Sequence record: EU863409
Source: Escherichia phage JS10
Strand: one strand, 5' to 3'
DNA: 64,000 nt
Shown: positions 3,025-60,450 of the stretch, piece after piece
How positions within the stretch are numbered: the first letter of the stretch is position 1
How the letters are laid out: each line of letters opens with the position of its first letter
Position numbers and translations under genes: made by a program
The notes under the pieces: generated by a model
The model's database searches: none
Told to the model about the DNA's origin: nothing
What the model saw: only the letters and a program-made list of their open reading frames with translations

Positions 3025-4842
3025 TTATGACATCCAAGCCTTGCGCAGCTGTGGGTCGTTTCCAAGGAGCATTTCGAACTGGTCTTTCCAATCTTCAGGT
3101 AATTGAACTACATCGAATTTAGGGTCTTGAATCATTCGACGGTATTCAGCCTTCTCAAGAGAACCGAGACCTTTAATATAACGAATAGAATGTTTTGGTA
3201 GAGAGTCCTTAGCTTTGGTATAACTAGGTACATCATAGAACCATTCCTGTTCTTTACCAACCTGAGCAATGATTACAGGAGTCTTACAGAAACGAATTCG
3301 TCCCTGTTCAAACAATTCCGGCCACTGACTAAAGAAAGCTAATAACGAAGGATAAATCGAACCAGTACCATCCACATCGGCGTCAGTCATGATAGCGATA
3401 TTGCGATAGTTGGTTTTATCTGCAGGTTCACCAATAACCAGTCCAGTGATTGCACAGATATCAAACAATTCTTTGTTCTTCATGATATCGGCAGCAGTCA
3501 TACCCCAGGTATTCATAACCTTTCCGCGTAACGGATAACCACCTTGGAGGTCTTTATTACGAACTTCAATGAAAGGACCCATTGCAGAATCACCTTCCGT
3601 AAGGAATAAAGTCGTATCAGCATCTTTGCCATACATATTGGCTTTAATATGCTTATGGACCTTGGCTTTCAAAGCTTTCTTAGCAGCTTTTGTTTCGGCT
3701 GCTTTTTCAGCAGCGAGTTTACGTGCTAAAGCTGCTTCGACAATAGGCATAATCAACCCATCGACCTTAAGAATAGCCGTTGCAATTTTCTTAGCATCAA
3801 TTTGGATATGGTTACGAATCTCACCAAACGGAGAGGTCAATCGCTCTTTAGTCTGTGAATCAAAACGCATATTGCTCATATCACGAATGAACATGACCAT
3901 CGTAAGGCATTCTTTAACACGAGCCTTAGTTACTTCGATTCCTTTATATTTCTTTTTAATACCAGGCAGAAGGTGCTCACAGATATCGTCAAACACACAT
4001 TCAACGTGATGGCCGCCATTCTTAGTATGGATATTGTTTACATACGTCAGTTGACGGAACCCGTCCGGAGAAGGAGTAAATGCCATCGAAACATTATCAG
4101 TTTCTTGGATTACAAAGTCTTCACCAAATTGCTTAGCATACTTTTTAAAGTTGCCATCTACTTTTTTACCATTAAAAGTAAATTGGATATCCGGATAAAT
4201 TACGGCCAGTGTTTGAAGACGGTCTAATGTAATATCCAGATAAATTTGGGACAGACTATTTTCTTCGAAATGGTTAAAGTCTGGGGTGAATATAACCGAA
4301 GTACCCTTACCTTTAGATTTCTTAGTAGACCAACCTTTGTTTTCCATTCCATTGGAACAGTTAACAGTAATCTCATTCTCACCATCAGAGGTGATGCCTG
4401 TGAACAAAACAGAGAAGATATTAGTTAAACTACTACCAACACCGTTCATGCCGCCTGTCTTACGCTCAGCGTCATCTCCAAAGTTACCACCGGCTTTTGG
4501 AATAGTCCATGCAGCTACAGGACCCGGAATTTGTTCACCGTTTTGGTCAGTAACCATTGCTTGAGGAATACCACGGCCATTATCAGAAACTGAAACCTGA
4601 TTATTCTTAATTTGAACATCGATTTTATTTGCGAATTTAAAATTGGTACGAATAGCTTCATCGACAGAGTTATCAATGATTTCGTCAATTAATTTAACCA
4701 GTCCAGGAACATAGTTCACCTGGGTAAAATTACCAAACAGGAATCGACCGTGAGCTTCATTAGCACTTGAGCCAATATACATCCCACTACGTTTTTTGAT
4801 ATGTTCAATGTCGGACAGTACTTTAATTTCATTCTTAATCAT
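3025..4842 (-). CDS. 39: DNA topoisomerase II large (ATPase) subunit, fused 39/60 type
   Basis: 605 aa; GyrB-like ATPase N-terminus; T4 synteny upstream of rIIA. Confidence 0.85.
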   Translation of the reverse strand: MIKNEIKVLSDIEHIKKRSGMYIGSSANEAHGRFLFGNFTQVNYVPGLVKLIDEIIDNSVDEAIRTNFKFANKIDVQIKNNQVSVSDNGRGIPQAMVTDQNGEQIPGPVAAWTIPKAGGNFGDDAERKTGGMNGVGSSLTNIFSVLFTGITSDGENEITVNCSNGMENKGWSTKKSKGKGTSVIFTPDFNHFEENSLSQIYLDITLDRLQTLAVIYPDIQFTFNGKKVDGNFKKYAKQFGEDFVIQETDNVSMAFTPSPDGFRQLTYVNNIHTKNGGHHVECVFDDICEHLLPGIKKKYKGIEVTKARVKECLTMVMFIRDMSNMRFDSQTKERLTSPFGEIRNHIQIDAKKIATAILKVDGLIMPIVEAALARKLAAEKAAETKAAKKALKAKVHKHIKANMYGKDADTTLFLTEGDSAMGPFIEVRNKDLQGGYPLRGKVMNTWGMTAADIMKNKELFDICAITGLVIGEPADKTNYRNIAIMTDADVDGTGSIYPSLLAFFSQWPELFEQGRIRFCKTPVIIAQVGKEQEWFYDVPSYTKAKDSLPKHSIRYIKGLGSLEKAEYRRMIQDPKFDVVQLPEDWKDQFEMLLGNDPQLRKAWMS

Positions 4843-18676: not shown

Positions 18677-18717
18677 GTTGATAGGTCTATAGTATCATGC
18701 CTACAGGAGAAGTAAAC
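18677..18717 (-). promoter_or_regulatory. early-promoter cassette
   Basis: minus strand GTTTAC-N17-TACTAT-AGACCTATCAACTTGGAGAAC-ATG. Confidence 0.6.
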
Positions 18718-21867: not shown

Positions 21868-22761
21868 CTAGCATACTACGTCCTCATAACGTGGCATTTC
21901 GTATTCAGAATGAATATTGGCACCGAAATAAATGAATTCAGCCAGACCAGGATGGAATACTAAACCTGGGTTCTCATGATAAATGATATGTGGTCTTGAT
22001 TTCAGAATTTGATAATATTCAACCTTACTCGGTTTGAATTTAATAATCTCTACATCAGGACGATAGTCTTCGCGCTTAAATGAATCATTCGGGTCGGTGA
22101 TATAAAGACGAGCACCTTCAGCGGCAGCTTGGTCTACAACTCTTTCGAATTGATAGCACTTATCCGAAATACGGAATGGATGGAAAATACCATCAATTTT
22201 AATAGGCGCTAGACCTTCAGAGTAACGCTCAATTACTGCAGGATTAATTACCTTTTGGTCTACAAAAATCTTATCAGAGGATGCACCTCGTGACACCAGG
22301 ACGTCTTTCTGGCATTGATTCAGGACTGTAGTATAAAGTGAACGTTCAACCGAAGCCACATCAATATCAATGAACTCGTCGATATAATAACGAGGAACTT
22401 CAGGGTCCATTGTGATATTAAAGTTGAATTGTACAGTGTGAGCACCATCATAACCGGTGATATCGGTTACCAGTCCTGAGCAATCGTAGTATTCGATTAG
22501 TGAATCGACTACAAACTCATTTTCAGACCAGAAATGTTTACGGGTTTCATAAGCATTTTCTTTATACCAAAGTGGTACGAAATTCAGTTCTGGGAATAAT
22601 TCAATGCATTCTTTGATATCGCTCGAATTTCTAGGATAAGCCAGATAATCACCTGGACGAGCACGATTTAAATGGAGTTGAAAATTACCGTCCTTAAGGA
22701 CGGCATATTCACCTGTTTCGTAACTACGCATACTGAAAATAGGAACGATAAACAAACTCAT
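21868..22761 (-). CDS. hypothetical protein at the T4 beta-glucosyltransferase locus; candidate DNA-sugar transferase
   Basis: 297 aa; sits between uvsX and gene 42 where T4 has bgt, but does not resemble T4 bgt. Confidence 0.5.
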   Translation of the reverse strand: MSLFIVPIFSMRSYETGEYAVLKDGNFQLHLNRARPGDYLAYPRNSSDIKECIELFPELNFVPLWYKENAYETRKHFWSENEFVVDSLIEYYDCSGLVTDITGYDGAHTVQFNFNITMDPEVPRYYIDEFIDIDVASVERSLYTTVLNQCQKDVLVSRGASSDKIFVDQKVINPAVIERYSEGLAPIKIDGIFHPFRISDKCYQFERVVDQAAAEGARLYITDPNDSFKREDYRPDVEIIKFKPSKVEYYQILKSRPHIIYHENPGLVFHPGLAEFIYFGANIHSEYEMPRYEDVVC

Positions 22762-23456
22762 TTCAGGAAACCTCGGACGTAGTCAAAATCACGTTCAAAC
22801 ACGTGTGCACTTACCATGGTGTGAGAATATGTACCTAAACCGACACCACACTGTTCAGCAATAAATGCCATCAGTTTACCCTGCAGATAGAAATCCAGCT
22901 GCATAACAACAGCACAGTTTTGTGAACGCATATGGGTGTGTGCATACAAACGTCCGTCACGAATATAATACGTTACCGAATCGGTGCACGGATATTCTAA
23001 GGATTCGTCAGAATCAAGGAGGGCTTGGTCTTGTTCTTGGAGAATCTGGAACACAACTCTTCGCGAGTTAGCCTTTTCTTTAAGCTCTTTAAGTAGGGCT
23101 GGGAGTTGGGCCACAATTCGAGGTCCATAGAAAGTGTTGAAGTTTGCAGGCAATACGTCACTTTTCGGCTTATCAATGAACTTAGCAACATTAGGATATT
23201 CCTTAAATGCTTCGGCGGCGTCAGTACCACCAGAAATCATAAATTTCCAAAAGGATTCGGCATATTCATAACTAATACGATTGATACGTGGGTCGGTGAA
23301 TTTATAGGTGCTTGCATCCAGTACTTCTACAGAAGCAGAACCAATTTCATAACAACGTCCGATACGAGAATCAACTGCAAACTGTGGAGCTTCCAGGATT
23401 TCTTCGTTCATTTGTTTAAATGCATTTTCAAAACTAACAGCGGTAATGTGTTTCAT
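22758..23456 (-). CDS. 42: dCMP hydroxymethylase (thymidylate-synthase fold)
   Basis: 232 aa; NSRRVVFQ...THMRSQNCAVVMQLDFY...HVFERDF align with T4 gp42 blocks. Confidence 0.8.
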   Translation of the reverse strand: MKHITAVSFENAFKQMNEEILEAPQFAVDSRIGRCYEIGSASVEVLDASTYKFTDPRINRISYEYAESFWKFMISGGTDAAEAFKEYPNVAKFIDKPKSDVLPANFNTFYGPRIVAQLPALLKELKEKANSRRVVFQILQEQDQALLDSDESLEYPCTDSVTYYIRDGRLYAHTHMRSQNCAVVMQLDFYLQGKLMAFIAEQCGVGLGTYSHTMVSAHVFERDFDYVRGFLK

Positions 23457-23989
23457 TTATTCACCTTATTTTCAATATATTCGTTCAGACGTTTTAATTC
23501 TACCATATCAACATTAAGCAAATTATTATGGCCGTCATGATTTAAGATTTTAAACACGTTTTCAAAACATGTTTCGTATTGCCGGATAGTTAGGTTGAAC
23601 TCATCTTTGGTTAATTTAATAAGGTCGTCTTCGAAGTCTTCGTCTAATGGATTACGAGTTAAAATAACCTCGATAACGTTAAATTCGGATTTAAACCCTT
23701 TCCAATCTTCCAGTTCTACATAAGGGTCCATTTCACCACGAAGGAATCCTGAGTAAACAATATTACTTGGATAACCACGGTCAAGGATATAAACGAAATT
23801 AGGGTCTAAAAACTTATACAGAGTTTCAACTAAAGCCTTATCGTTATCGGTTCCTAATGAAATACACTTGCCATTAATCTTTTTAGGAAAATCAATAAGG
23901 CGGTATTTCTTATTGGATAACAGATTTTTAATTAAAGTGGACTTCCCGGAATTATCCGGGCCGTCTATAACAATGATTTTTGGATTCAT
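23453..23989 (-). CDS. P-loop kinase, thymidylate-kinase-like
   Basis: 178 aa; Walker A IVIDGPDNSGKST typical of Tmk/dNK-type kinases. Confidence 0.55.
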   Translation of the reverse strand: MNPKIIVIDGPDNSGKSTLIKNLLSNKKYRLIDFPKKINGKCISLGTDNDKALVETLYKFLDPNFVYILDRGYPSNIVYSGFLRGEMDPYVELEDWKGFKSEFNVIEVILTRNPLDEDFEDDLIKLTKDEFNLTIRQYETCFENVFKILNHDGHNNLLNVDMVELKRLNEYIENKVNK

Positions 23990-24384
23990 GGATGATAGGC
24001 CTTATAACTATCAAGAGTTCCTTCACGAACCATTTCTTTAAAGTGGTCAGGACGGATTGCTCGGTCATCGATGATAAAAGTATAACTCGGCTTGTGTGTA
24101 AGCAAATTGTGATATTTCAATCCAATTTTTTCAAGGTTCTTAACCAATGCAGGAACTACTTCAACCAAGATTCGACCTGGGCCACATGAAGTCATGCCAC
24201 GGGCGGTGAACAATGTAATCTCGTACCCTTCATCATAAAGCTTATTAATCATGGACACCATTTCGGTGTCCGGTTTAAAGTTCTCATAATCACGGTCATG
24301 GTTCCAAATCGTGATTGTGTTATCGATATCAAAACATAAGTGTGGCTTATTTTCTACTCGATGCGACATTAAATTTTCTTCCAT
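23986..24384 (-). CDS. HAD-superfamily phosphatase
   Basis: 132 aa; motif I CFDIDNTIT (DxDxT). Confidence 0.6.
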   Translation of the reverse strand: MEENLMSHRVENKPHLCFDIDNTITIWNHDRDYENFKPDTEMVSMINKLYDEGYEITLFTARGMTSCGPGRILVEVVPALVKNLEKIGLKYHNLLTHKPSYTFIIDDRAIRPDHFKEMVREGTLDSYKAYHP

Positions 24385-26042
24385 TGTTTGTGGAGTTCAG
24401 TAGAACCTGTAGGTTTATATTTTACACCAGTTTCCTGGTCAAGCAAAACCCACTTATCAGGACAACGAGTAATAATTTGGGCCGTAATAGGGTCACGAAC
24501 TTCATCGACAAATTCACCTGTAATAAGCTTACGCTTACGAGGATGCCGCTTCAGCAGCACACTCAGTTGGTACAAACCGTTATAATAAGCACCCAGAGCT
24601 TTCAGAGGGTTATTCTTAAAGTAACCTGCCAGAGCCATCCAAATAACAGCAATCCAGAGCTTGTGCTTAAATGTGCACATAGGGATATCGTCTAAAGGCA
24701 TAACCTTTTCGATATCAACGAATACACGAGTTCCGTTACGAGTTAATCCACCCCATAGAGGGTCTGAGTTAAATTTGTCATAGCCATCGATAGAATAAAG
24801 CACCTTAGCTTCATCATAAATCGCAGGGCCTTTAGAACTATTACCGAAATAACCGCGTGGGTCGATGATTTTAATATCACCTTCGTCCGACAGCATAATA
24901 TTACTGTAGTGCGGGTCACCATGAATAAGTTGGTACGGTTCTTTATGTTCAGACAGAATTTCTAGTGCATGGCGGAGAAGTTTTTCAGGGTCGCCTACTT
25001 TGAAATCGTTAACATGGGTAATGCCTTGTGGAGCAAAGCCTTCAATCAATCCGGCAATAGAAGCATTACGAATAAGGACCTTGTCCAATACTTCTTTCTT
25101 AACATCAGAATACCATTGCTCATCGGACGGGTTATCGATAGTTCCACCGAATGAACGTAATGCACTAATGACCTTATAAACCATGAGGACTTTAGTTTCT
25201 TTGGACATAAACCGGTAGGCATCTGCCATGGTCCGACCAAAGATACGTTCCATTTTAATGAATTCGCCTGGAGAAAAGTCTACAATGCTAGGAACGAATT
25301 CAGAATCAATAGAATTATACCAATTGATTTCTTTAGATTGAATTTCTTTACCTAAATCGTTAGTTGGTACTTTAATAGCCAGATTCTCGGTGAATTCTAA
25401 TTTATTAAATTCACGGTTAATTTCAGATTCTTCATGGGCCTTAGCCAGTTTCAATTTGTCACCGACATCAACTACAAAGTCCAGTTTACGTTCAGTCAAA
25501 TAGACCATTGAATCCAGGTTATCAGCAAGGTCTTCACCGTAATTAGAACGGTCGAAACCTGTCCAATTAGCCACCTGATACAAACCAACTACACCGCCAC
25601 CGGTACCAATTTCACGTAAGTACGGTTCTTCAAATGTAAAACGACAATCGGTTCCATAAGTATAGCAGTAGTCGTTACCCCACTCAACTTTATGACCTTC
25701 AGGAATGATGTCACACCAGTTAAACAAGACATTATGACCAATGATATCTTCGGCAATGCAATCGATAGCATGAGCTGAACCATTAGCAACATCAACGTTA
25801 CGAATAGTGAATTTAGGCTTATCACCAGTAATCATGTTAATGGATTTAATATAGCCTTTAACGAGGTCGTTAAATTTGCTGTGAATAACCAGAATAATTT
25901 CATCTGATTGGTTACTATACAAATCATACAAATGCTTTAATACTGTATGTTGTTTGTAGTTAACCAATACCTTCGGGATTTCGTTAGTAATTGGGTACAA
26001 ACGTGAGCCAAGACCTGCGCCTAAAATAACAACCTTTTTCAT
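24369..26042 (-). CDS. bifunctional sugar-1-phosphate nucleotidyltransferase / APH-fold sugar kinase
   Basis: N-terminus VVILGAGLGSRL (NTP-transferase G-x-G-x-R); C-terminus HGDPHYSNIML...IIDPRGYFG (APH/choline-kinase catalytic loop); start trimmed to ATG 26040-26042 with GAGGAA RBS. Confidence 0.65.
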   Translation of the reverse strand: MKKVVILGAGLGSRLYPITNEIPKVLVNYKQHTVLKHLYDLYSNQSDEIILVIHSKFNDLVKGYIKSINMITGDKPKFTIRNVDVANGSAHAIDCIAEDIIGHNVLFNWCDIIPEGHKVEWGNDYCYTYGTDCRFTFEEPYLREIGTGGGVVGLYQVANWTGFDRSNYGEDLADNLDSMVYLTERKLDFVVDVGDKLKLAKAHEESEINREFNKLEFTENLAIKVPTNDLGKEIQSKEINWYNSIDSEFVPSIVDFSPGEFIKMERIFGRTMADAYRFMSKETKVLMVYKVISALRSFGGTIDNPSDEQWYSDVKKEVLDKVLIRNASIAGLIEGFAPQGITHVNDFKVGDPEKLLRHALEILSEHKEPYQLIHGDPHYSNIMLSDEGDIKIIDPRGYFGNSSKGPAIYDEAKVLYSIDGYDKFNSDPLWGGLTRNGTRVFVDIEKVMPLDDIPMCTFKHKLWIAVIWMALAGYFKNNPLKALGAYYNGLYQLSVLLKRHPRKRKLITGEFVDEVRDPITAQIITRCPDKWVLLDQETGVKYKPTGSTELHKQWKKI

Positions 26043-26102
26043 TATCTGTTCCTCAAGTGAATGTAGGTACATTATACACTATTTTTAATAAATTTCTATT
26101 GC

Positions 26103-56571: not shown

Positions 56572-56860
56572 ATTTTTTCCAGTCAGAAATCATATGAATC
56601 TCTTGGTCATACGTCAAGAGACTACGAGTTATAATACCCTTACAAGGCCCTGAGATGAACTCGAGGGTGAAGTAAGGAACCTGTTTCATTAATCGGATAC
56701 TAGGAGCGTGGCATCTAAAACGAGAGCCCTTAAAGGGCCCTGACATGAATACATATTCTAATGGATAGAAATAAGCATGCTCAAAGTTTGTAGTAAGGTC
56801 CTCTCTTCGAACCTTACGTGAGAAATAACAGAACTCAAAAAGTTCTTCATCGGTCATCAT
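56564..56860 (-). CDS. hypothetical protein
   Basis: 98-aa ORF. Confidence 0.45.
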   Translation of the reverse strand: MMTDEELFEFCYFSRKVRREDLTTNFEHAYFYPLEYVFMSGPFKGSRFRCHAPSIRLMKQVPYFTLEFISGPCKGIITRSLLTYDQEIHMISDWKKYV

Positions 56861-57384
56861 TGCATTCCTATCACAAAGAACAGTGGCAGAGGTTTAGAAC
56901 CCTGGCACATAAATTTGTTAATCATTACCTGGTAAGCTTCATAGAACTTATCCATCGATGGAAGGCGCATTGGCTCTTCGATAATAATCAATAATCGAGT
57001 AACTGATAGACCACGATACTTATGGAAGTTATCTTCGTCTAAAAATGAACGCACGGTATCATATACAACAAATCCAGGACCTTCTACTTGAAGGTGTGGT
57101 TGGGCCTTAGAAACCCTTTTTATTATATTACAGATTTCTCGTGAGCGATGCGAAGAACTTGACATAACAATCACATCATTACCCTTGGAAACCCAATCAG
57201 CTGCGAACTGAGCAAGGGCACTTGTTTTACCTGTTTGACGCCCGCCGTCAAGTCGAAGAGTACCAAATTCTTGCATTCTTGAAGTGGGTTCGTACCAGGT
57301 ATATTGGTCTGAGTCTAAACGTTCAATGGCGCGTTCAGCGAAGGCGTGCATTAAGGTTAGATAAATGGGAGTTAAAAATTTCAT
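56857..57384 (-). CDS. P-loop NTPase
   Basis: 175 aa; Walker A GGRQTGKTS. Confidence 0.5.
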   Translation of the reverse strand: MKFLTPIYLTLMHAFAERAIERLDSDQYTWYEPTSRMQEFGTLRLDGGRQTGKTSALAQFAADWVSKGNDVIVMSSSSHRSREICNIIKRVSKAQPHLQVEGPGFVVYDTVRSFLDEDNFHKYRGLSVTRLLIIIEEPMRLPSMDKFYEAYQVMINKFMCQGSKPLPLFFVIGMQ

Positions 57385-57544
57385 AATGGTCTCTTAGTTG
57401 TGGGGCCGTTCCTTGGCACATAATTCATCCATGTATCCGTATGTAAACCCTTTACCGCACTTGGGCTCGACCTTATTACAGGTAGGGAAAGGTCCATCAC
57501 TCAGAGGACGCGACGTTCATGAGGAGAGGGCCGGCTTGCCTTTA

Positions 57545-57844
57545 TTAGAAAGAACCAGAACCTTTAATTGTATTCTGGCGACCTTTATTTTCTAATTCAG
57601 AGTGGTCGATTTCGTATGCTTGGGCTACACCAAAGGCCTTTTTAACTTTAGCTAAAGAGCCTTTAGATGTAACAATATTAAAAGTATTACCTTTAGTAAA
57701 ATCAACCAAATCCACTTGTACGCCCTGTTTACCGAGGCTTGCTACAATAGCATCAACATATTCTTGGTCTAAGGTGCCTTGGACACCTATTTGGAATGCT
57801 TTAGGAGCTTTGGCTTCTGTAATAAATTCTTGATAGGTTTTCAT
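57545..57844 (-). CDS. internal protein (capsid-targeted), IP family
   Basis: 99 aa; N-terminal capsid-targeting sequence MKTYQEFITEA as in T4 IPs. Confidence 0.65.
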   Translation of the reverse strand: MKTYQEFITEAKAPKAFQIGVQGTLDQEYVDAIVASLGKQGVQVDLVDFTKGNTFNIVTSKGSLAKVKKAFGVAQAYEIDHSELENKGRQNTIKGSGSF

Positions 57845-57856
57845 ATTATTCCTTAA

Positions 57857-57898
57857 GTTGATAGAAGTATTCTATCACGGATTTAATTAAGCGTAAAT
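57857..57898 (-). promoter_or_regulatory. early-promoter cassette (variant -35)
   Basis: gttgatagaagtattcta...gtaaat. Confidence 0.45.
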
Positions 57899-58303
57899 AG
57901 CCTTGCCATAGTGTTTGTACCAGGTAGGGCGTTGTGCAATTTTTTCGTCCAAACGGGCTTGTGAAATAGCGATAGAAGCTTCGTGAGGAACATAATCACC
58001 ACGGAATTCCTGAGGAATATCACTAATGTCCTGGACTGTAGTATCCTTGATATTAAAGCCACGTTTTAAACATTCGGCTATAAGCTCGATTTGACGCTTA
58101 CGTAAAAATTCAAGCTTATCATAAAAGAATGTAACGTGGCCTGTACCAAGGATAAAAGTAGGGCTGATTTTAAAATCACGAACACGTTTACCGTTAGCAA
58201 CATGCTTACGAACTGCACCGAAAACACGTGGTAATTCACGATATTCAGCCATTAAGTGTTGGTCAGCCAATTCAGATACTAAGGTAAGGTTGATACGAGT
58301 CAT
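57887..58303 (-). CDS. denV: endonuclease V (pyrimidine-dimer DNA glycosylase)
   Basis: 138 aa; essentially identical to T4 DenV ([34 protein letters not shown]...). Confidence 0.95.
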
Positions 58304-58318
58304 TTTTAATCTCCTGTA

Positions 58319-58359
58319 GTTGATAGGTCTATAGTATCATGCCTACAGGAGAAGTAAAC
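58319..58359 (-). promoter_or_regulatory. early-promoter cassette
   Basis: gttgataggtctatagtatcatg...gtaaac. Confidence 0.6.
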
Positions 58360-58758
58360 TTATTTGTAAGTTTTCATCCAATTCTTGAACAGAGCTGCAA
58401 CGTCTTTCTCTTTAACGTTCAATTTAACGTCCAGCATTTTGCCACCAGCGGCACGTGTCTGACGAATCTTAGCCGTACCGGTTTCGCCATTCCACTCAAC
58501 ATAATACTGCCCGGTGTTCATAGCGATACCATCGCCATAGTCTTCGTTCTTAGAAGTAGTGAATGCCAACTTCATGGTCTTAGAGACACGGGCCTGCATG
58601 CCTGTCTGCAGAGCGTTACGAACGCGAATAACCTGAGGAGTGGCCTGGGTCAGGTTCTCGTTCAGTTCTTCGGTGAACTCTTCTGATTCAAACATTGCCA
58701 AAAGTTCAGCGGGCGCCGGGATTACAGCTTCGGCGATAAATTCATTGTAAGTTTTCAT
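58360..58758 (-). CDS. internal protein (capsid-targeted), IP family
   Basis: 132 aa; N-terminus MKTYNEFIAEA. Confidence 0.6.
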   Translation of the reverse strand: MKTYNEFIAEAVIPAPAELLAMFESEEFTEELNENLTQATPQVIRVRNALQTGMQARVSKTMKLAFTTSKNEDYGDGIAMNTGQYYVEWNGETGTAKIRQTRAAGGKMLDVKLNVKEKDVAALFKNWMKTYK

Positions 58759-58799
58759 ATAGGTCCTTTAAAGGTAAATGTGTTTAAGTATAGGCTTTA

Positions 58800-59396
58800 T
58801 TAATTACCACGGGCTGCATTAGCAACGGCGTAAGCGTACTGAATATTAGCGTCTTTAAACGTACCTTTAGAGGTATCTAGCTCTGCCTTAAAGCCGGCTT
58901 TAGTCATAACATCGGCAAATTCTTTACGGAAAGCCATTGTATCAAGACCTTTCCATGCTGATTTATGCTTGGCAAATTCAAGACCAGCGAAGTTGACTGC
59001 TTTAGCCAATTTATTATCAATAGTCCATTTACCTGCTTTAGGCACAAATATCGGACCTTTCTGTTTAGAGAATAGTTTTAAATTCCAGCGACGAAGGTCG
59101 CCGTCGGCTTTAACAAAAGCTGCGTCCAAGTTACTAGCAACAACATCTTGAATATGGCCAAATTTAAGCCCATCAGCTTCAATATTTAGGTCGTTACGCC
59201 AGCGAAGTCCTTCCCAGGCGAAAGCTTTAAAGTCGGAAGCTTTTGTAGCTAAATACCGTTCAATAGGAGCTGTTTTAGCGTCAAAGCCGTTTCCTGGGTT
59301 GTCAACGCCGTTTCCTCGGTAGGTCCACTCATCTTTATTAATGCCTTTGACCTTTCCTGCAGTAGCTTCGGTGATAAATTCTTTATACGTTTTCAT
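58800..59396 (-). CDS. internal protein (capsid-targeted), IPIII-like
   Basis: 198 aa; N-terminus MKTYKEFITEA; basic. Confidence 0.6.
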   Translation of the reverse strand: MKTYKEFITEATAGKVKGINKDEWTYRGNGVDNPGNGFDAKTAPIERYLATKASDFKAFAWEGLRWRNDLNIEADGLKFGHIQDVVASNLDAAFVKADGDLRRWNLKLFSKQKGPIFVPKAGKWTIDNKLAKAVNFAGLEFAKHKSAWKGLDTMAFRKEFADVMTKAGFKAELDTSKGTFKDANIQYAYAVANAARGN

Positions 59397-59434
59397 ACGG
59401 GTCCTTCAAATGTAAATTTAATTAGTCTGTTCAA

Positions 59435-59475
59435 GTAACTGTAGATATACTATCACAATTCTAGGAGATGTAAAC
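59435..59475 (-). promoter_or_regulatory. early-promoter cassette (degenerate)
   Basis: gtagatatactatcac...gtaaac. Confidence 0.4.
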
Positions 59476-59480
59476 TGCTT

Positions 59481-59969
59481 TTATCTATAAGCAGCCCAAG
59501 TACCTGTTTTAAAGGTGGCGATAACACGCTTGGCACGATTCGGGGTTTGCTTGTACCAACGAGACTGCGCCAGGTTAACTGCCGCATCGTCCCAACGTTT
59601 CTGTTGGAGCATACGTAAAGAGTTAGTGAACCCTGCCACACCTGCTTCACCCATTTGGAAGACCATATTAATCAATGCGCAACGACGAACTTCGTCCAAC
59701 ACATCATAAACCGGTTTCAATTTAGGATTGCGCATTATAGCTCTACGAGCATTTTCCACTGAACGATTAAAGAGTTGTTCAGCTTCAGCCATAGTAATAC
59801 GACCATTACAAACTCGACCCATAAGCTTATCAAGTTCAGCGCGAGCAACATCTTTAGATGGGTTCTTGGTAACTAACTGGCCAATACCAATAGTCCAATA
59901 ACCTTCGGTGTCTTTATAAAGGTTTAAATCAAGACCTTCGTCTTGACGTAACATATCAAAAATATCCAT
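59481..59969 (-). CDS. e: endolysin (T4 lysozyme)
   Basis: 162 aa; long identical blocks with T4 lysozyme ([62 protein letters not shown]). Confidence 0.95.
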
Positions 59970-59974
59970 AATTA

Positions 59975-59992
59975 CCTCCTGATTATAGGAGG
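59975..59992 (-). promoter_or_regulatory. RBS-sequestering hairpin of gene e
   Basis: inverted repeat cctcct/aggagg around a 6-nt loop; the AGGAGG RBS is in the 3' arm. Confidence 0.6.
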
Positions 59993-60000
59993 TATTTATA
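59993..60000 (-). promoter_or_regulatory. late promoter TATAAATA of gene e
   Basis: plus-strand tatttata immediately upstream of the hairpin. Confidence 0.6.
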
Positions 60001-60450
60001 TCAAAAGAGTGAATCTAAAACCTTAAACATCGACGGGCCCATGACATATTCCCATTGCGGACGTTTAATCAAAGCGAAAGCGTCGAATTCCGGAATCGTA
60101 CGACCATCAGGGAACGTATGGTAAGCTGTACATTTGCAATTCTTGAACTGCTCGTGTTCGACAGGCACAGTATATAAGAACAGGTGTAGATTCTTATTGC
60201 TTGAATATTTGAACTCACCTAGGTCTTTCAGGAACGCAGGGTCATATGCTGTGAATCCAATCTCTTCTTCGGTTTCACGCATTGCCGCTTGAATAGGCTC
60301 TTCACCCGGTTCGACATGACCTTTAGGGATGTCCCATTTATGACGCATGTTCTCTGGATTACGAGAGCCTGTTACACGACCCATAACCAATTCTTTATCG
60401 GCGGTCATGAACAAAATACCAGCGGATAATTCTTTCGCTTTCTTACTCAT
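60001..60450 (-). CDS. nudE: Nudix hydrolase
   Basis: Nudix box [22 protein letters not shown]; start trimmed to internal MSKKAKEL to about 149 aa, near the T4 NudE size. Confidence 0.75.

Follow-up and report, generated by a model that had tools for sequence, protein, structure and literature searches.

Introduction

Suppression genetics of the capsid-targeting tag of T4 IPIII assigned targeting to Tyr4 and Phe7 and processing to Ile/Leu8 and Glu10; the first 10 residues alone are enough to package foreign proteins in T4, and the propeptides of the T4 internal proteins comprise 10 to 19 residues (PMC9026906). T4 Ip1, Ip2, and Ip3 each block a different GmrSD type IV restriction enzyme: IPI* inhibits the GmrSD of CT596, IPII (Ip2) that of ECOR21, and Ip3, as demonstrated in 2025, the two-gene enzyme of E. 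coli ECOR17. Ip3 is needed for infection of ECOR17, and tag-less Ip3 works when supplied in the cell. With ten further ip genes, including ip4 to ip10, inhibition of other GmrSD variants was not reproducible, and an apparent effect of ip7 on CLS_011 did not repeat. A second described system relevant to this locus is the promoter-early stem-loop (PeSL) cassette found in T4-type hyperplastic regions (PMC2839356, PMC4122927).

The DNA analyzed here, referred to as the window, is a stretch of 64,000 nucleotides from Escherichia phage JS10 (EU863409). It represents the first 64 kb of a JS98-like Dhakavirus, a T4-type phage, with an identity to JS98 of ~98%. A preliminary description had pointed to three capsid-targeted internal-protein genes flanking denV. 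We find there a known kind of system together with one unannotated family, which leaves the known picture unchanged and extends the catalogue.

Results

Three tagged genes flank denV in the e-denV locus

All three open reading frames that had been described are present on the minus strand: IP99 (57545..57844, 99 aa), an Ip7-family internal-protein gene; IP132 (58360..58758, 132 aa), a tagged gene of an unannotated family in the T4 ipII slot; and IP198 (58800..59396, 198 aa), the ipIII/Ip3 ortholog. Between IP99 and IP132 lies denV (57887..58303, minus strand), encoding endonuclease V, a pyrimidine-dimer glycosylase, which matches Pfam PF03013 (Pyr_excise, 1.3e-14), is 97.8% identical to T4 DenV, and constitutes a conserved anchor flanked by internal-protein slots. 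The lysozyme gene e is found at 59481-59969 on the same strand (59481..60000 with its leader hairpin and late promoter), and the order e / IP198 / IP132 / denV / IP99 / vs.8 matches the T4 order e / ipIII / ipII / denV / vs.8. The trio sits in the classical e-ipIII-ipII-denV locus, one of the two T4-type internal-protein loci, the other being 57B-tRNA. Genes for the gp22 scaffold, for gp23, and for Inh, the inhibitor of gp21, are present in the near-identical genome of JS98. An Rfam scan of positions 56800-60200 gave no match.

The three N-termini read MKTYQEFITEA, MKTYNEFIAEA, and MKTYKEFITEA, confirming the common start MKTY(Q/N/K)EFI(T/A)EA that had been noted. The divergence said to follow it is confirmed as well: a three-way alignment leaves only one invariant residue past position 11. 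Y4, F7, I8, and E10 are invariant in IP99, IP132, and IP198, as in a T4-type tag. A six-frame scan found MKTY four times in the window, at the three open reading frame starts and in the last residues of IP132, and a degenerate tag pattern allowing GTG and TTG starts detected no open reading frame besides these three in the 64 kb. At the DNA level, the genes have in common a 42-nt ribosome-site-plus-tag block, AAGGA-N5-ATGAAAAC.TA..A.GAATTTAT..C.GAAGC, with three matches against 0.00 expected from 100 shuffles. These pattern matches, all on the minus strand, lie at 57813..57854 for IP99 (AAGGA-N5-ATG, the first nine codons, and part of the tenth), at 58727..58768 for IP132, where the block forms the 5' junction of the replacement of ipII by IP132, and at 59365..59406 for ipIII.

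By the mechanism that we propose, each protein would be synthesized with an N-terminal capsid-targeting sequence of 10 residues (MKTYxEFIxE), the tag would bind the scaffolding core of the assembling prohead, and the prohead protease gp21 would cut after Glu10 (I-x-E, then A). The mature basic protein would remain in the head once it is filled with DNA and would enter the host by injection along with this DNA, which would therefore make action before any phage gene expression possible, and it would most probably bind and block one variant of a GmrSD-type modification-dependent (type IV) restriction enzyme. The earlier proposal of capsid-targeted, injected internal proteins fits every point on which the sequence could speak, namely, the invariant tag residues and the classical locus. 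We consider it likely that the three genes are members of the T4-type internal-protein system in a variable denV locus, including the packaging, injection, and GmrSD inhibition just outlined.

IP198 and IP99 belong to described internal-protein families

By sequence, IP198 is an ordinary ortholog of the IPIII/Ip3 family: it is 85.9% identical to T4 IPIII over its full length (198 columns, E 1.5e-125), it matches PHROG 5341, "internal virion protein" (4e-114), and its JS98 counterpart is annotated ipIII. It shares with T4 IPIII the tag, the position adjoining e, the early promoter, and the leader, and differs from it by an insertion of 5 to 6 residues near the N-terminus (GNGVDNPGNGFD versus SGNGFD). 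While T4 has glucosyl-hmC genes, the phage encoding IP198 carries an RB69-type modification cluster. IP198 is predicted to block a two-gene GmrSD of the ECOR17 type.

IP99 can be assigned to the Ip7 family on the basis of its full-length homology to T2 Ip7, its mature part being 47.8% identical to T2 ip7 (98% coverage, E 5e-15). It matches PHROG 2667, "internal head protein" (5e-43), the annotation also carried by its JS98 counterpart, orf112. The structure model of IP99 (pLDDT 74) has a beta-alpha-beta-beta-alpha-beta arrangement, and its best and sole significant viral match in BFVD is the "Ip7 protein" of phage MX01 (E 2e-10), with only generic ACT/ferredoxin-like folds beyond it (E ~6e-3, TM 0.45-0.54). 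The name Ip7 reportedly goes back to Repoila et al. in 1994, and T2 Ip7 is said to be an internal head protein encoded in the 57B-tRNA locus. Both proteins are similar in length and carry the tag, but the IP99 gene belongs to the e-denV-vs.8 locus, in a denV-vs.8 interval that contains no gene in T4. Dhakaviruses WG01 and MX01 have an IP99-type copy and a second Ip7 copy elsewhere. Functional searches (Pfam, NCBIfam, and PADLOC) yielded nothing significant, and profiles of IP99 and IP132 retrieved no relevant sequence from the PDB.

The element common to the three genes is not a promoter

Each of the three genes had been credited with a promoter cassette of its own, which holds for ipIII, in part for IP99, and not for IP132; what all three have in common is the ribosome-site-plus-tag block. 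The gene ipIII is preceded by a T4-early promoter that matches a strict pattern (GTTTAC-N14-TGATAGTAT; 59447..59475, minus strand) and is conserved with the T4 ipIII upstream region. Upstream of IP99 lies a looser early-promoter-like site (TTTACG-17-TAGAAT with an upstream TG, 9/12; 57869..57897, minus strand), the -35 element of which falls inside the last denV codons. This site is a consensus match only, the generic scan having found 8 such sites versus 6.0 ± 2.2 expected, which is not significant; an identical sequence precedes orf054 of the related phage AnYang. The 41-nt spacer 5' of IP132 contains no promoter-like site, and this gene has neither promoter nor hairpin.

The strict T4-early pattern was found 9 times, versus 0.05 expected. 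One of these promoters (58331-58359) belongs to the denV promoter/stem-loop cassette of the PeSL type (58304..58359, minus strand), in which a hairpin covers the denV ribosome site (-18.1 kcal/mol, z = -4.3) and the leader is near-identical to the T4 denV leader. Hairpin scores were z = -3.4 for the e leader, z = -1.4 (weak) for IP99, and z = +1.1 (not significant) for ipIII. Like PeSL cassettes, the denV unit combines promoter and hairpin and is repeated in the window, with 29/29 identical positions at 18689-18717; unlike them, the ipIII promoter lacks a significant stem-loop.

No late or middle promoter lies directly 5' of the three internal-protein genes. The only late promoter of the region (TATAAATA, 60000-59993, minus strand) precedes e, and the minus strand from e to vs.8 has no terminator-like site. 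Transcription from this late promoter is likely to read through into the internal-protein genes and would probably supply the proteins late in infection, while IP132 would probably be cotranscribed with ipIII from the ipIII early promoter and IP99 would be driven by its own early-like promoter.

Internal-protein genes around denV are exchanged as cassettes

The region around denV is a known hyperplastic internal-protein locus. Within 3.5 kb of denV, 32 of 79 IMG/VR loci contained a total of 69 tagged open reading frames, which were all on the denV strand and fell into at least 17 families. The sequence past the tag is hypervariable between phages, and alignment to AnYang exposes the junctions. 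Positions 58727-59476 of the window match an AnYang segment that takes in the first 32 nt of ipII and runs through ipIII, whereas the body of IP132 aligns to AnYang orf058, adjoining e; a true ipII is present in AnYang and absent from the window. The 3' boundary of the IP132 cassette is the denV promoter/stem-loop cassette. A second junction relative to AnYang coincides with the IP99 block: positions 57815-57856 match AnYang twice, at the beginning of orf053 and again at that of orf054, the pattern that loss of the tagged, 119-aa orf054 between direct repeats would produce.

These alignments suggest that homologous recombination swaps internal-protein genes as cassettes, with the 42-nt ribosome-site-plus-tag block serving at one junction and the repeated early-promoter (PeSL) sequence at the other. 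Such an exchange would differ from that of PeSL cassettes in that the second recombination substrate is the tag coding sequence with its ribosome site and not a second PeSL.

IP132 represents an unannotated family in the ipII slot

IP132 is the only one of the three genes that belongs to an unannotated family. It matches PHROG 15461, "unknown function" (2e-91), and its family comprises 48 phage records, of which all 40 listed are named "hypothetical protein." An exhaustive profile search of 1.84 billion representatives returned only 7 proteins; those outside the family comprised a fusion of two domains and weak hits to beta-propeller-like repeats. The structure model (pLDDT 55) was too poor for a structure search.

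Like T4 IPII (Ip2), IP132 carries the tag and fills the exact ipII slot, from the ipIII stop to the denV promoter, and the two genes share the leader ATTTAC.TTTAAAGGA. Unlike IPII, IP132 has 132 instead of 100 aa and an acidic stretch past the tag, and its gene is not preceded by a stem-loop promoter. There is no homology to T4 IPII beyond the tag, the alignment covering residues 1-15 of IP132 and residues 1-12 of IP99. T4 IPI*, for which an NMR structure has been solved, follows the same tag logic and has no sequence similarity. The C-terminus of IP132 (…NWMKTYK*) resembles the start of another tagged gene and was considered as a recent recombination scar, an origin rejected in view of the conservation of this end, which drifts normally across the family (MKTHK, MKSYK, MKVHK, LK-K) and is predicted to lie within the terminal helix.

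IP132 could instead be an ordinary early cytoplasmic protein, absent from the virion, whose tag is a passenger acquired by recombination. The uniformly "hypothetical" annotations listed, the lack of an own promoter and of a nearby late promoter, and the recombination junction within the tag-coding block, by which a tag might be acquired passively, are all compatible with this. However, an alignment of 12 family members as little as 57% identical shows no change at M1, K2, T3, Y4, E6, F7, I8, and E10. The tag is kept invariant across four phage genera (its carriers come from Dhakavirus, Marfavirus, Serratia 4S, and Erwinia Cronus), whereas variation is free in the ~20 residues next to it. Moreover, the gene occupies the e-denV internal-protein slot in every genome examined, and in T4 the tag suffices for packaging. 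A passenger tag thus appears very improbable, and IP132 is a probable internal protein, as judged from its tag and its place.

In the family alignment there is also a candidate for a second cleavage of IP132 by the prohead protease, at L32-N33-E34 and before N35 (58657..58665, minus strand). L32, E34, and N35 are invariant in the family, while residues 11-30 vary or are deleted, and LNE shortly past the tag recurs in 4 of 17 tagged families. IP132 may be trimmed a second time after Glu34, which would raise its predicted pI from 8.2 to 9.9 and leave a protein of 98 aa and 11.0 kDa; the T4 propeptides of up to 19 residues provide a precedent for cleavage beyond residue 10.

DNA modification and candidate targets

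The window carries an RB69-type DNA modification cluster, in agreement with the earlier suggestion that, with a different DNA modification, these proteins may be aimed at different host defenses, but the link between the two is weak. Close homologs of IP132 occur in Dhakaviruses and Marfaviruses, which are reported to have the RB69-type cluster. Against the link, relatives of Ip3 and Ip7 are found in the glucosyl-hmC phages T4 and T2, and Erwinia phage Cronus encodes an IP132 homolog alongside a dCMP hydroxymethylase of the T4 type and, by annotation, an alpha-glucosyltransferase. None of the other four modification cluster genes was found in the first 50 kb of Cronus. That IP132 tracks RB69-type modification was therefore rejected as a family-level rule.

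An anti-defense role, also proposed earlier, is established for T4 Ip1, Ip2, and Ip3, and IP198 shares 86% identity with Ip3. The arabinosylated DNA of RB69 is among the substrates that GmrSD restricts. For IP99 and IP132, GmrSD targeting is an extrapolation, because the further ip genes gave no reproducible inhibition. The target could also lie outside GmrSD: IP99, IP132, or both might counter another sensor of incoming modified DNA, such as a DNA glycosylase or a nuclease of a different family, or a nonnuclease first-response system. None of the effects of ip4 to ip10 on five additional active GmrSD variants was reproducible, the RB69-type cluster implies that the phage DNA presents a different target, and a glycosylase defense against T-even phages is reported (PMC13160076). 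We regard a non-GmrSD target as unlikely, since all three characterized internal proteins hit one enzyme family, both internal-protein loci have been argued by the authors of that work to be dedicated to GmrSD, and the published panel sampled only 15 groups of a large GmrSD diversity.

The proteins might also be mainly structural, i.e., abundant basic head proteins that neutralize DNA charge and help heads to assemble or to be packaged, without acting on any specific target in the host. The predicted mature forms are basic, with a pI of 9.0 for IP99 (89 aa, 9.5 kDa), of 9.6 for IP198 (188 aa, 20.7 kDa), and of either value given above for IP132. Each T4 internal protein is represented by ~300 copies and binds DNA at low salt. 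In T4 IPIII mutants, head assembly slows to half its rate and the burst drops to ~40% of normal (PMC9026906); contacts of internal-protein lysines with DNA phosphates are also described in the literature. A generic charge role would not, however, demand that at least 17 unrelated families swap in the same slots, which an arms race explains. T4 Ip1 to Ip3, moreover, all have specific GmrSD targets, and tag-less Ip3 is active from the cytoplasm. A mainly structural function consequently seems rather unlikely, if somewhat less so than a target outside GmrSD. Structural and anti-restriction roles are not mutually exclusive.

Discussion

Of all phage products, injected internal proteins are the first that host immunity encounters. 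Recognizing IP132 as probably one of them would add a candidate inhibitor to the type IV restriction arms race, and this candidate occurs in phages whose DNA is predicted to be arabosylated rather than glucosylated at cytosines. Dhakavirus and Klebsiella Marfavirus relatives are in therapeutic use or have been proposed for it, and a restriction-limited host range matters in that setting. The junctions described here are, in addition, a clean example of the tag-coding sequence itself as a recombination handle.

A bolder and doubtful reading is that IP132 founds a new family that gp21 processes twice, cutting off first the tag and next, after Glu34, an acidic pro-segment to give an 11-kDa basic protein, and that this protein inhibits an uncharacterized variant of a modification-dependent nuclease attacking the arabinosylated cytosine DNA of Dhaka- and Marfaviruses, with IP99 acting likewise on a second variant. 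If this were true, the locus would yield the first inhibitor-target pairs for defenses against nonglucosylated hypermodified DNA.

Three tagged genes surround denV

Four genes lie on the minus strand of 57545-59396, in transcription order the 198-aa ORF IP198 (58800-59396), the 132-aa ORF IP132 (58360-58758), denV (57887-58303), and the 99-aa ORF IP99 (57545-57844), with the e lysozyme gene (59481-59969) upstream of IP198 and vs.8 (56857-57384) downstream of IP99. The T4 backbone is the same: e, ipIII, ipII, denV, vs.8. As the preliminary description had stated, the three ORFs around denV begin with a common capsid-targeting tag (MKTYKEFITEA in IP198, MKTYNEFIAEA in IP132, and MKTYQEFITEA in IP99) and diverge beyond it, their alignment retaining a single invariant column past position 11. 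In a six-frame translation of the 64-kb window, MKTY occurred four times, at the three ORF starts and at the extreme C terminus of IP132, and a degenerate tag motif, with GTG and TTG starts allowed, matched IP198, IP132, and IP99 only. At the DNA level, the block AAGGA-N5-ATGAAAAC.TA..A.GAATTTAT..C.GAAGC was observed three times versus 0.00 expected from shuffles; the ribosome site plus tag codons, about 42 to 50 nt, form the element common to the three genes. This sharing of the tag is far beyond chance.

The region is 98.7% identical to that of Escherichia phage JS98 (genus Dhakavirus). Positions 1-36000 of JS98 are colinear with the window (92 to 99.5% identity), which therefore covers the 64 kb at the rIIA end of a JS98-like genome. 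In JS98, the counterparts of the three genes are labeled "internal head protein" (orf112), "hypothetical protein" (orf114), and ipIII. The spacer between IP99 and vs.8 (57385-57544; 160 nt, GC-rich) still codes for PVIRSSPSAV, which is how T4 Vs.8 begins, in a frame other than that of the window vs.8, which encodes 175 aa versus 219 aa in T4. As far as compared, the 5' region of this vs.8 resembles that of the related Dhakavirus AnYang (95%) and diverges from that of JS98, so the window is mosaic, with parts from different Dhakavirus lineages.

Identity of the three proteins

IP198 aligned with T4 IPIII over its full length (85.9% identity, E 1.5e-125), matched PHROG 5341 (4e-114), and by these alignments is the T4 IPIII ortholog. 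IP99 matched PHROG 2667, "internal head protein" (5e-43), and its mature form was 47.8% identical, over 98% coverage, to T2 ip7, a gene of the second internal-protein locus, which lies between 57B and the tRNA genes. The predicted IP99 structure (pLDDT 74), beta-alpha-beta-beta-alpha-beta plus a helix, gave only generic ACT/ferredoxin-like fold matches, and its sole significant match among viral models was the "Ip7 protein" of phage MX01. IP99 is an Ip7-family member, and both proteins are ordinary members of named families.

IP132 matched PHROG 15461, "unknown function," and its model was poor (pLDDT 55). Homologs were found in 48 of 50,697 phage records, from Dhakavirus, the Klebsiella Marfa group, Serratia 4S, and Erwinia phages, and all 40 among the matches listed were labeled "hypothetical protein." A search of 5.8 billion proteins yielded 17 clusters, and 7 matches came from exhaustively searching 1.84 billion representatives with a profile. 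Resemblance to T4 IPII is confined to the first 15 residues, and the position of IP132 is exactly the ipII slot. In an alignment of 12 family members, down to 57% identity, M1, K2, T3, Y4, E6, F7, I8, and E10 were invariant, and residues 11 to 30 were variable or deleted. No gene other than the homolog separates e from denV in Serratia 4S and Erwinia Cronus. The retention of the tag despite this divergence, together with the constant internal-protein slot, argues that the IP132 tag is functional and not a passenger. IP132 is probably an internal protein overlooked by public annotation.

The C terminus of IP132 (58360-58380, minus strand) reads NWMKTYK before the stop codon and mimics a tagged-gene start directly before the denV promoter. 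We rejected a recent recombination scar as its origin, the C terminus being conserved, with drift, across the family. A 194-aa metagenomic protein (P0040) appears to join two internal-protein cassettes, an N-terminal part similar to another tagged family and an IP132-like domain at residues 92 to 192.

Predicted packaging and processing

The first 10 residues of IPIII are enough for packaging, residues 4 and 7 controlling targeting and residues 8 and 10 controlling processing, and internal-protein propeptides are 10 to 19 residues long (review of Black's work, PMC9026906). Tagged foreign proteins are packaged and delivered. Y4, F7, I8, and E10, followed by Ala, are all present in IP198, IP132, and IP99, and the nearly identical JS98 genome codes for the scaffold gp22, gp23, and Inh, the inhibitor of the prohead protease gp21. 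Since both the critical tag residues and these machinery genes are present, we infer on good grounds that the three proteins would be packaged and cleaved. No virion proteomics for the Dhakavirus group was found in the literature. The predicted mature forms (IP99, 9.5 kDa, pI 9.0; IP132, 13.7 kDa, pI 8.2; IP198, 20.7 kDa, pI 9.6) fit the internal-protein class, mature T4 IPII and IPIII each having a pI of 9.6.

Residues 31 to 35 of IP132, E-L-N-E-N, are invariant and follow a variable acidic stretch. They contain L-N-E (residues 32 to 34; 58657-58665, minus strand), followed by N, and the gp21 motif is L-x-E. Of the 17 tagged families, 4 had LNE within 35 residues past the tag, but LNE was found only once in 5,362 later positions. 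The position after Glu34 is a candidate second gp21 cut, which is predicted to remove the acidic segment and leave 98 aa (11.0 kDa, pI 9.9). Some T4 internal proteins have propeptides of more than 10 and up to 19 residues, a precedent for the longer pro-segment proposed for IP132.

Promoters and expression

The strict T4-early pattern GTTTAC-N14-TGNTANNAT occurred nine times in the window versus 0.05 expected, always on the minus strand, including sites upstream of ipIII (59447-59475) and denV (58331-58359). A hairpin after the denV promoter masks the denV ribosome site (-18.1 kcal/mol, z = -4.3), and the T4 denV leader is almost identical; the arrangement is a promoter-early stem-loop of the kind reported by Arbiol and Comeau (PMC2839356, PMC4122927). 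The 29 nt of the denV promoter, GTTTACTTCTCCTGTAGGCATGATACTAT, recur without a mismatch at 18689-18717, some 40 kb away, and the nine promoters of this type are potential recombination handles.

The proposal that each tagged gene has its own promoter cassette stood for ipIII, with its strict promoter, and in part for IP99, whose looser site (TTTACG-17-TAGAAT with TG) has its -35 element inside the last denV codons, but not for IP132. The 41-nt spacer upstream of IP132 showed no promoter-like site, hairpin, or late or MotA-type motif, and most simply, IP132 is cotranscribed with ipIII. In AnYang, the ATG of the IP132 homolog lies within the last e codons (14-nt overlap, AnYang locus 4229-4242), and the gene is therefore without a promoter of its own there too. 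The only late promoter, TATAAATA, in 56 to 61 kb precedes e, and a search of the minus strand found no terminator-like site; late supply of internal proteins may occur by read-through. At e (59970-60000), this promoter abuts a hairpin (z = -3.4) that masks the ribosome site in longer early transcripts, a classical arrangement.

Cassette exchange at a hyperplastic locus

AnYang carries five tagged genes at this locus, in the order e, IP132 homolog, ipIII, ipII, denV, orf054 (119 aa, tagged), IP99 homolog, vs.8. Compared with AnYang, ipII is replaced by IP132 in the window. The 5' junction falls within the leader-plus-tag block (58727-58768 aligns with the AnYang ipII start), the gene body aligns with AnYang orf058, and the 3' junction lies within the next early promoter, at GTTTAC.TCTCCT. 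The window lacks orf054, and the stretch 57815-57856 (42 nt) aligns with each side of the lost segment, as would be expected for loss between direct repeats.

Among 79 IMG/VR loci containing denV, 32 held 69 tagged ORFs, all on the denV strand, clustered immediately before and after denV and belonging to at least 17 unrelated families; ipIII lay before denV in some loci and after it in others. The locus is a known one, the hyperplastic internal-protein locus, and internal proteins have already been described as a diverse defense-protein set with the tag alone in common. Outside the window, the trna.4-57B gap of JS98 contains a fully tagged 97-aa ORF that the record leaves unannotated (MKTYQEFIKES; 72260-72553, minus strand), with a possible GTG-start tagged ORF just upstream of it, and JS98 also has the "hypothetical" orf135 (start 69348; 205 aa) with tag and LNE.

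DNA modification and proposed anti-restriction function

Homologs of the RB69-type modification cluster occupy 21868-26072 of the window, between uvsX and gene 43, a position held in T4 by gene 42 and beta-gt. They are an orf047c-like gene, a thymidylate-synthase homolog, kinase-like and phosphoheptose-isomerase-like genes, and a gene for a 567-aa protein. A 2026 paper identified the thymidylate-synthase homolog of the cluster as a 5-hydroxy-dCMP synthase and named Dhakaviruses and Marfaviruses as carriers of the arabinosylation cluster. Given this cluster and that listing, the DNA of this phage probably lacks glucosyl-hmC. Erwinia phage Cronus has an IP132 homolog alongside a hydroxymethylase of the T4 type, which shares only 21% identity with the window enzyme, and a gene annotated as alpha-glucosyltransferase; a search of its first 50 kb found none of the four remaining cluster genes.

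The preliminary description had linked a different modification to different defenses. That specific link is weakened by an Ip3 86% identical to that of T4, by Ip7 relatives in T2, by the Cronus homolog, and by the ability of the type IV restriction enzyme GmrSD of strain CT596 to restrict arabinosylated RB69 DNA. The same defense class is therefore the most economical target.

Mature T4 IPI inhibits the CT596 GmrSD, and ECOR17 is not infected by T4 without ipIII, a defect rescued by tagless IPIII expressed in the cell. A 2025 study found that Ip2 inhibits the GmrSD of ECOR21 and Ip3 that of ECOR17, without cross-protection, and its authors suggested that the two internal-protein loci serve specifically against the GmrSD family; in the same study, ip4 to ip10 gave nothing reproducible against further GmrSD variants, an apparent ip7/CLS_011 effect included. 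Searches of Pfam (no significant match), NCBIfam, PADLOC, and Rfam, and of the PDB with sequence profiles, provided no clue to function. An anti-restriction role is strongly supported, at the level of sequence, for IP198; for IP99 and IP132 it would be an extrapolation. The general internal-protein interpretation is the textbook one and holds, with IP198 as IPIII ortholog, IP99 in the Ip7 family, and IP132 as a probable case.
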